In this document: piece by piece, positions 9,790 to 50,703 of the stretch
Numbering within the stretch: the stretch's first letter is position 1
Layout of the letters: each line of letters opens with the position of its first letter
Assembly: GCA_046758445.1 (NCBI GenBank)
Contig: JBHIAE010000001.1
Location: 32,001 to 96,000, forward strand
Length of the DNA stretch: 64,000 nt
Source: Candidatus Thorarchaeota archaeon
Lineage (GTDB): Archaea > Asgardarchaeota > Thorarchaeia > Thorarchaeales > Thorarchaeaceae
Direction: 5' to 3'
Program-made: the position numbers and the translations under genes
Notes under the pieces: model-generated
What the model was told of the DNA's origin: nothing
Seen by the model: the letters and a program-made list of their open reading frames with translations, nothing else
The model's database searches: none

Positions 9790-10377
9790 CTAGGGTCGGT
9801 GCCAGACAAAGCTATAGTATGCAATCTGACCGTTCTCTTTGATTGTCGCTACTATGAACTTCTTCCGTACACTGGTTGCCAGCCTTCCAGCCCTCACAAT
9901 ATCGAGTGGGACCACACCTTTCCTTTGGGGAATCACGTGCACAAGAAATGGAGCATGATCCTTACCAGGACCATGTTCGTAGACTGCGAAATCGGTACCG
10001 AACTTCAGCCCAGGTCTTACAACGTATCCTCGCTCTCTTAACTGACTATACACCAAGAACCTATCTCTGAAGTCCTCTGACCTGCTTTCACCGAGTGTCA
10101 GAAGGTCATCCTGCGTGAGTGTACGTTTCTCTTGCCCACTGTGTACCTTGAGTCTTCCTGCCTCGCTCAGATAAACGCACTCAATCAGCGAGAGTTCTAA
10201 TGGCTTATCGAAGATAGCAGACTTCGGCTTCCGAATTCCAATTGGCTGACCAAAGTAACCCTCCCCGTATAGACGCATACCATGTTCTGGATTCCAGACT
10301 ATGCCTCGGTCACCAACCAGCTCTGCCTTAGCTATGTCGTCACGGGGACTTGACAATGCCTCCACCGGCCGTTTCAT
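9790..10377 (-). CDS. endA: tRNA-splicing endonuclease, catalytic subunit
   Basis: GLKFGTDFAVY, GPGKDHAP and SVRK give the Tyr-His-Lys triad; N-domain contains GYFGQPIGIRKPK loop. Confidence 0.95.
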   Translation of the reverse strand: MKRPVEALSSPRDDIAKAELVGDRGIVWNPEHGMRLYGEGYFGQPIGIRKPKSAIFDKPLELSLIECVYLSEAGRLKVHSGQEKRTLTQDDLLTLGESRSEDFRDRFLVYSQLRERGYVVRPGLKFGTDFAVYEHGPGKDHAPFLVHVIPQRKGVVPLDIVRAGRLATSVRKKFIVATIKENGQIAYYSFVWHRP

Positions 10378-50114: not shown

Positions 50115-50315
50115 TACTGCCCCCTACATTGCAATAGCCATCTTCTCAGATAAGAGTTGAGAACTGAGAAAGGAATCCAAACGATAACCATCTCATCTGC
50201 GCCACGACTCAAGAGCCTTACAGCTGTGAATGACCTGGGTTCTGAAGCCAATATTCTTGTCGTACTATTGTTTCAGGGAAAAAGTGAAAAGCACGACAAT
50301 ACAGTGACTGTCCAA

Positions 50316-50485
50316 GCCCGGATAGCCAAGCGGTTCGCTCATGACATTCCGTCACGAACCTGCAGACGGCGGCAGCCTGGAGCAGGCCAACTGGTCGAAC
50401 AGGCAGCTGCTCTCCTTCTAGGAGGCATGAAGGTCGATCATTCGTGGTCGGTCTGGCTAGAGTTCGAATCTCATTCCGGGCGCCA
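50316..50485 (+). tRNA. tRNA-Ser(GGA) with three introns (50336-50365, 50383-50404, 50430-50460)
   Basis: Spliced 87-mer: acceptor GCCCGGA/UCCGGGC, D arm GCC-AAGCGGUUAC-GGC, anticodon stem GCAGC/GCUGC with loop CUGGAGA, variable arm CUCCU/AGGAG, T arm AUGAG-UUCGAAU-CUCAU, G73, encoded CCA. Confidence 0.93.
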
Positions 50486-50487
50486 CT

Positions 50488-50703
50488 TCATTCCTTTCTG
50501 CCAATCCTCAAACCGATGAATATCAGGGCAAGAGTAAGTGCTGTCAGTCCAGTCGCCAGCACAGGAGGTAGTGCCCTCTCTGGATAGAGTGGGCCTTCGA
50601 CTGCTGCGGTATTAATAGTCCAAAGGAGAAAGCCTGCAATGAGGAACAAGATGATTGAGTCAATCACTTGACCCATGCTGACCTTCCTGTTTCTCTGGCT
50701 CAT
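50488..50703 (-). CDS. Small two-TM membrane protein
   Basis: Two hydrophobic helices; upstream GGTGA SD. Confidence 0.7.
   Translation of the reverse strand: MSQRNRKVSMGQVIDSIILFLIAGFLLWTINTAAVEGPLYPERALPPVLATGLTALTLALIFIGLRIGRKE

Follow-up and report, generated by a model that had tools for sequence, protein, structure and literature searches.

Structure of the tRNA-Ser(GGA) gene

The window analyzed here is a stretch of 64,000 nucleotides from the genome of an Asgard archaeon of the Thorarchaeota (positions C1:32001-96000 of assembly G000, which comprises 3.25 Mb in 113 contigs and is 92.7% complete). Positions 50316-50485 on its forward strand, 170 bases in all, consist of four exons of 20, 17, 25, and 25 nt and three introns of 30, 22, and 31 nt. 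Exon 1 (50316-50335) contains the 5' strands of the acceptor stem and of the D-stem and the D-loop through U20a; its sequence is the same, or almost the same, as in the orthologous genes whose 5' part is uninterrupted. Intron 1 (50336-50365, 30 nt) interrupts the D-loop at position 20a/21. Exon 2 (50366-50382) comprises the 3' strand of the D-stem, the 5' strand of the anticodon stem, and the anticodon loop through G37 including the anticodon GGA, and is followed by intron 2 (50383-50404, 22 nt) at the canonical position 37/38 of the anticodon loop. Exon 3 (50405-50429) starts with A38 and continues with the 3' strand of the anticodon stem, the long variable arm, and T-stem positions 49-51. 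Intron 3 (50430-50460, 31 nt) splits the T-stem at position 51/52, and exon 4 (50461-50485) provides T-stem positions 52-53, the T-loop, the 3' strands of the T-stem and the acceptor stem, the discriminator G73, and an encoded CCA (50483-50485).

Upon removal of the three introns, 87 nt remain, which were called as tRNA-Ser(gga) by ARAGORN. The intron coordinates and the type II tRNA-Ser(GGA) given in a preliminary description of this DNA thus proved to be exact. The joined product has an acceptor stem of 7 bp, a D-stem of 3 bp, the anticodon loop CUGGAGA, and the T-loop UUCGAAU; it belongs to class II, with a variable region of 16 nt containing a 4-bp stem, and shows the anticodon GGA, the discriminator G73, and the encoded CCA in the ARAGORN drawing. 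A long variable arm, a 3-bp D-stem, G73, and a Ser anticodon are known as identity elements of SerRS.

An open reading frame of 120 aa with a TTG start (50157-50519, forward strand) spans the entire tRNA gene and has no match in Pfam. It is probably spurious and could be annotated by a gene caller as a hypothetical protein. The tRNA gene is neighbored by an asparaginase gene, and about 5 kb upstream lies the archaeal RNase P RNA (RF00373; 44870-45208, forward strand; 175 bits, full-length match to the model). For a downstream ORF of 206 aa, no homologue was found in the orthologous loci described below.

Intron borders in orthologous genes

The spliced tRNA was aligned, with an intron state allowed, to about 45 loci from the family to which G000 belongs, most of them syntenic; almost all have flanking coding sequence in common with the locus in G000. 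The exons are almost invariant among these orthologues, whereas the introns are divergent. Intron 2 is present in every orthologue examined; its length varies from 21 to 34 nt and its sequence differs apart from the 3' strand of the central helix H of the splice motif. Most orthologues carry this intron alone, and their other two sites read exactly as the predicted exon joins, with AAG(C/T)GGTT-ACGGCGG at site 1 and GGAGGCATG-AGTTCGAATC at site 3. The joins GGTT|ACGG in genes lacking intron 1 and GGCATG|AGTTCG in genes lacking intron 3 correspond to the prediction. Hence, the borders are fixed independently of the splice motif, a bulge-helix-bulge (BHB), and the three introns proposed in the preliminary description at 20a/21, 37/38, and 51/52 are confirmed by relatives that lack intron 1, intron 3, or both.

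Most of the roughly 45 loci lack intron 1, and about two thirds lack intron 3. A homologous intron 1 of 30 nt was found at the same site in G007 and G010 (genus of G000), G027, and G074, and a homologous intron 3, likewise of 30 nt and at the same site, in G003 (genus of G000) and five further genera. Introns 1 and 2 are combined in G007, G010, and G027, introns 2 and 3 in six genera. In G074, a member of another genus, introns 1, 2, and 3 are present, the third being cut off by the end of the contig; the complete intron 3 and exon 4 are found in G072 from the same genus. Within the genus of G000, all four states occur: three introns, introns 2 and 3, introns 1 and 2, and intron 2 alone. Four states in one genus require several gain or loss events at the tRNA-Ser(GGA) locus, where gain and loss are argued from genus labels only.

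Some orthologues deviate in other respects. Those of genus g3 (L010, L011, L054, L055, and L056) are devoid of introns 1 and 3 and contain a 29-nt insert in the T-loop after GTTCGA, which adds a fourth site to the intron positions of this tRNA. In the G027 orthologue (L007:1598-1673, L026:7870-7945) no CCA directly follows the discriminator, as GGGCGC is followed by TCTATTT. In the alignment, 26 additional bases precede a CA in this gene, but no BHB motif was seen there; the gene is probably one without encoded CCA. Four bacterial contigs matched in a scan with 20-mers were discarded, as they did not align to the tRNA outside the seed.

Splice motifs and covariation

Each of the three splice sites comprises a helix H of 4 bp and two bulges of 3 nt, with one non-Watson-Crick position per helix in G000. 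All helices and bulges listed in the preliminary description were found at the three junctions.

At the canonical site (intron 2), helix H is CUGG/ACAG with the bulges AG|C and GC|A, and the anticodon stem serves as helix h. The 3' strand of H occurs as NCAG, NCGG, and NUAG in the orthologues, and all of these variants preserve pairing with the invariant CUGG. In several of them, a C stands opposite G35 and forms a G-C pair.

Intron 3 has the helix GGCA/GGCU (G-U, G-C, C-G, A·G) with the bulges UG|A and AG|A and lacks helix h, thus corresponding to an HBh' motif, a relaxed form. Directly after the bulge, a 10-bp hairpin capped by UUCG is formed; this hairpin, already noted from the sequence, is contained within the minimum-free-energy fold, and the precursor has a z-score of -3.26. 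Among 12 distinct orthologues, 7 of the 10 hairpin pairs show compensatory changes on both sides. In total, 85% of the cells are paired as compared to 13-58% for slid registers, and the covariation score was reached by no shuffle. The A·G position of H is an A-U pair in 3 of the 12 orthologues, which identifies it as part of the 4-bp helix. The preliminary description had pointed to a purine-purine mismatch in the central helices of introns 2 and 3. The helices are present as listed, but the mismatch is not a conserved feature, as A-U replaces it in the three intron-3 orthologues and G-C in several intron-2 orthologues.

Intron 1 forms the helix GCGG/CUGC with the bulges UU|C and AG|A; helix h is interrupted, resulting in a relaxed BHB. 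Its hairpin consists of nine positions, two of which are mismatched in G000, and it is perfect in G027. Compensatory changes were detected in 4 of the 9 hairpin pairs and 1 of the 4 pairs of H when five orthologues were compared. The minimum-free-energy fold of the intron-1 region of G000 is a continuous helix instead of the BHB; in this alternative helix, 92% of the cells pair across the five orthologues, and the covariation does not exceed that of shuffles. The BHB of intron 1 is therefore the better supported fold, though not the only possible one.

Detection by tRNA search programs

When the unspliced DNA of the whole window was submitted to ARAGORN, no tRNA was reported. The search of the window against Rfam at gathering scores returned the archaeal RNase P RNA as its sole match and no tRNA. 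The locus was also not among the matches of the Rfam tRNA model to the whole genome at E ≤ 10, and an Rfam scan of a 301-nt stretch around it at E ≤ 10 gave zero matches. An orthologue carrying the canonical intron alone reached 48.1 bits in a full-model match to the Rfam tRNA. Hence, introns 1 and 3 conceal the gene. The expectation that standard scans may miss it was therefore borne out for ARAGORN and Infernal/Rfam, the scans covered here.

Splicing enzymes

The window itself encodes the catalytic (alpha) subunit of the tRNA splicing endonuclease EndA (9790-10377, reverse strand; 195 aa; Pfam PF01974 and PF02778). Its best match in the PDB is chain B of Aeropyrum pernix EndA (3P1Z_B) with an E-value of 3e-45 over 179 aligned residues. 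The alignment covers the Crenarchaea-specific loop, where the Lys of the A. pernix motif VEKPRG aligns with IRKPKS, and conservation extends to the motifs of the catalytic Tyr, His, and Lys. A second EndA paralogue of 250 aa is encoded outside the window (C7, L022:1057-1809, forward strand). It has the EndA fold and lacks the catalytic His, which fits the expectation for a structural beta subunit, although it is closer to the Methanopyrus kandleri fusion and to alpha-type chains than to crenarchaeal beta chains. This beta-like protein carries an acidic N-terminal extension of about 70 aa, and its gene is followed by a 425-aa ORF with overlapping stop and start codons. RtcB is encoded at C6:22854-24164, also outside the window.

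Asgard archaea were assigned an (alpha-beta)2 EndA with an L1 loop, and the cutting of relaxed motifs that lie outside the anticodon loop was linked to the loop lysine (PMC5829648). Based on this work and on homology, the EndA of G000 is predicted to be of the broad-specificity type. Helix h is missing at intron 3 and interrupted at intron 1; hence, both introns need an enzyme of this type.

Copy number and tRNA genes of the assembly

A BLAST search with the spliced sequence against the G000 assembly returned only the four exon pieces at C1:82316-82485. A second Ser(GGA) gene, uninterrupted or spliced, was not found by BLAST in this 92.7% complete assembly. Candidates for att-like or spliced partial tRNA copies at C8:45225-45243 and C71:3582-3596 are short matches that do not extend and were attributed to chance. 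Additionally, BLAST with the precursor and the spliced form against the whole assembly revealed no similar copy of introns 1-3 elsewhere in G000. With other introns of this genome they share only the length of about 30 nt and the hairpin geometry.

The genome was furthermore searched for tRNA genes by T-loop, acceptor pairing, and CCA, which yielded 38 tRNA-like genes, all 38 with encoded CCA. At least 23 of these exceed a mature tRNA in length, the excess being about 30 or 60 nt in most cases, and two or more inserts are apparent in at least 6; these numbers are based on gene lengths alone. An automated census by excision of BHB hairpins combined with ARAGORN was too permissive, and it overlooked intron 1 because of the two hairpin mismatches. 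The many elongated tRNA genes indicate that the triple-intron gene is one of many interrupted genes in G000. The search did not find anticodons for Tyr, Asn, Ile, initiator Met, Thr(TGT/CGT), Ser(CGA), and Pro(GGG); the respective genes are probably more heavily interrupted or unassembled. Most of the tRNA-like genes found in G000 are preceded by a CTTTWAWA-like box at about -35. Upstream of tRNA-Ser(GGA), no clear TATA-like box was found and the sequence is A-rich only, which is a weak point for expression.

Proposed processing of the precursor

We are highly confident that positions 50316-50485 on the forward strand represent a functional, single-copy tRNA-Ser(GGA) gene with three protein-spliced introns of the BHB type that is processed by EndA and RtcB. 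We infer that the gene is transcribed, that cleavage takes place at exactly the bonds described above, and that the exons are ligated. The following route is proposed on the basis of homology and established knowledge of EndA cutting and RtcB joining. The gene would be transcribed as a precursor with a body of 170 nt carrying introns in the D-loop, anticodon loop, and T-stem. At each site, bases of the 5' exon and the 3' end of the intron would form the 4-bp helix flanked by the two 3-nt bulges, and this arrangement would be offered to the (alpha-beta)2 splicing endonuclease, a heterotetramer whose Crenarchaea-specific loop would permit relaxed motifs outside the anticodon loop. On each side, EndA would then cut behind the second base of the bulge; the four exons would be ligated by RtcB to the 87-nt class II tRNA.

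The missing TATA-like box and the invisibility of the gene to standard tRNA models would also be expected for a decaying tRNA pseudogene, with insertions that are never removed and with the Ser codons UCC and UCU read by another tRNA. We regard this as highly improbable: the assembly contains no other Ser(GGA) gene, all four of its exons are intact and almost identical to those of orthologues throughout the family, and several genera have retained the same combinations of introns. Moreover, the insertions are located at exact conserved sites, and compensatory changes have kept the BHB pairing. Very little credence can likewise be given to the possibility that only the canonical intron is spliced and the D-loop and T-stem inserts stay in an unusual tRNA as expansion hairpins. 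Both inserts are indeed compact hairpins, and intron 1 can adopt a non-BHB helix as an equally pairable fold; however, the T-stem is divided between pairs 51 and 52 by the 31-nt insert, which would keep a T-arm from forming. The two inserts also preserve the 4-bp helix and the two 3-nt bulges that are the recognition features of EndA, relatives function with the exact insert-free sequence, and G000 possesses the predicted broad-specificity type of EndA.

Removal of the introns at shifted bonds or by a different activity, for example via the alternative helix of intron 1, appears very unlikely as well. A shift of both intron-3 borders by one base (50/51 instead of 51/52) would give the same product, and the relaxed BHB of intron 1 competes with another fold. 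Nevertheless, it is only at the proposed bonds that each of the two cuts would follow the second base of a 3-nt bulge, and only GGTT|ACGG reproduces the D-loop of orthologues devoid of this intron. Self-splicing group I or II introns are far longer than 22-31 nt. The inserts are far too short for such elements, which rules out this type of activity. An assembly artefact was ruled out because the same introns occur in independent assemblies. Splicing of three BHB-type introns by EndA and RtcB hence remains the reading that we favor.

Comparison with known systems

Intron-containing tRNA genes are common in Asgard archaea: a study from 2024 reported that 92-95% of the tRNA genes contain introns, with many non-canonical positions among them and with more than one intron in many of the genes (PMC11291895). 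A 2026 preprint covering 90 Asgard genomes described up to five inserts per tRNA gene, enrichment at BHB motifs, and D-arm inserts that are systematically missed by tRNAscan-SE; patchy presence was read as repeated gains, for which no route of arrival was identified (10.64898/2026.10.13.758758). An earlier survey of tRNAs and EndA had covered one genome of the Thorarchaeota (PMC5829648). The suggestion that an Asgard lineage possesses a fragmented tRNA system that is missed by scans is therefore correct but was already in print (PMC11291895; 10.64898/2026.10.13.758758; PMC5829648). The tRNA-Ser(GGA) gene resembles the published Asgard tRNA genes in having several short introns (median about 22-23 nt in the published set) at D-arm and T-arm sites in addition to 37/38, in the BHB motifs, in the failure of annotation to detect the D-arm intron, in the two EndA paralogues of its host, and in the patchy distribution among relatives. 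The published work centers on Atabeyarchaeaceae, Freyrarchaeaceae, and Jordiarchaeaceae, whereas the host here belongs to the Thorarchaeota. Neither Thorarchaeota nor Thorarchaeia occurs as a word in the main text of the preprint (10.64898/2026.10.13.758758), and no description of this Ser(GGA) gene and its intron polymorphism in one Thorarchaeota genus was found in the searchable literature.

In Thermoproteales, three introns in one tRNA gene are classical and include the 20/21 site; tRNA-Pro(UGG) of Pyrobaculum islandicum, for instance, has introns at 25/26, 37/38, and 56/57 (PMC4090602). The gene described here shares with these the set of three BHB or relaxed-BHB introns, one canonical and two non-canonical, as well as the known 20/21 site, and both hosts have, or here are predicted to have, an (alpha-beta)2 EndA with the Crenarchaea-specific loop. 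The host, in contrast, belongs to a different phylum and to a mesophilic, sediment-type lineage. Furthermore, near-identical introns in different tRNAs of Thermoproteales were taken as transposition, whereas introns 1-3 have no similar copy in G000 and thus do not show the near-identity between different tRNA genes that marks such a transposed intron family. The (alpha-beta)2 endonuclease of Aeropyrum pernix (PDB 3P1Z, 3AJV) corresponds to the predicted enzyme of G000 in the loop Lys, the Tyr, His, and Lys motifs, and a second paralogue devoid of His; the beta-like paralogue of G000 differs in being longer (250 aa with the acidic N-terminal extension).

Significance and additional observations

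As multi-intron, non-canonical tRNA genes of Asgard archaea have already been published, the present gene is a further, cleanly delimited example, and it leaves the knowledge of how such introns are spliced unchanged. Its importance lies in the fact that a single-copy, essential tRNA depends on three splicing events and is recognized neither by ARAGORN nor by the Rfam tRNA model; in addition, several gain or loss events are visible at one locus. Annotation of Thorarchaeota MAGs that omits a search for non-canonical introns will yield tRNA sets that look incomplete.

The four states found in one genus, together with the three-intron state in a second genus, suggest a wider reading, which we put forward tentatively and regard as possible but rather doubtful: introns 1 and 3 might belong to a Thorarchaeota-wide class of uniform hairpin mini-introns of about 30 nt that are still gained and precisely lost. 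If this were true, the gene would provide a natural system in which the gain and loss of archaeal introns could be observed while under way, and it might allow a test of whether such introns shield tRNA genes against integrating elements or RNA-guided nucleases.

A separate observation concerns two tRNA-Arg genes of G000 that are located 3 kb apart, tRNA-Arg(TCG) at C7:7893-8000 on the reverse strand and tRNA-Arg(CCT) at C7:11233-11367 on the forward strand. Both contain nearly identical D-loop inserts of about 28-30 nt with the sequence TTTCGGGGCTT(T/C)GACCCCT(A/G)AGAGGTTC, located at the same position after GGAC. This intron could have been inherited via gene duplication or copied between the isoacceptors.
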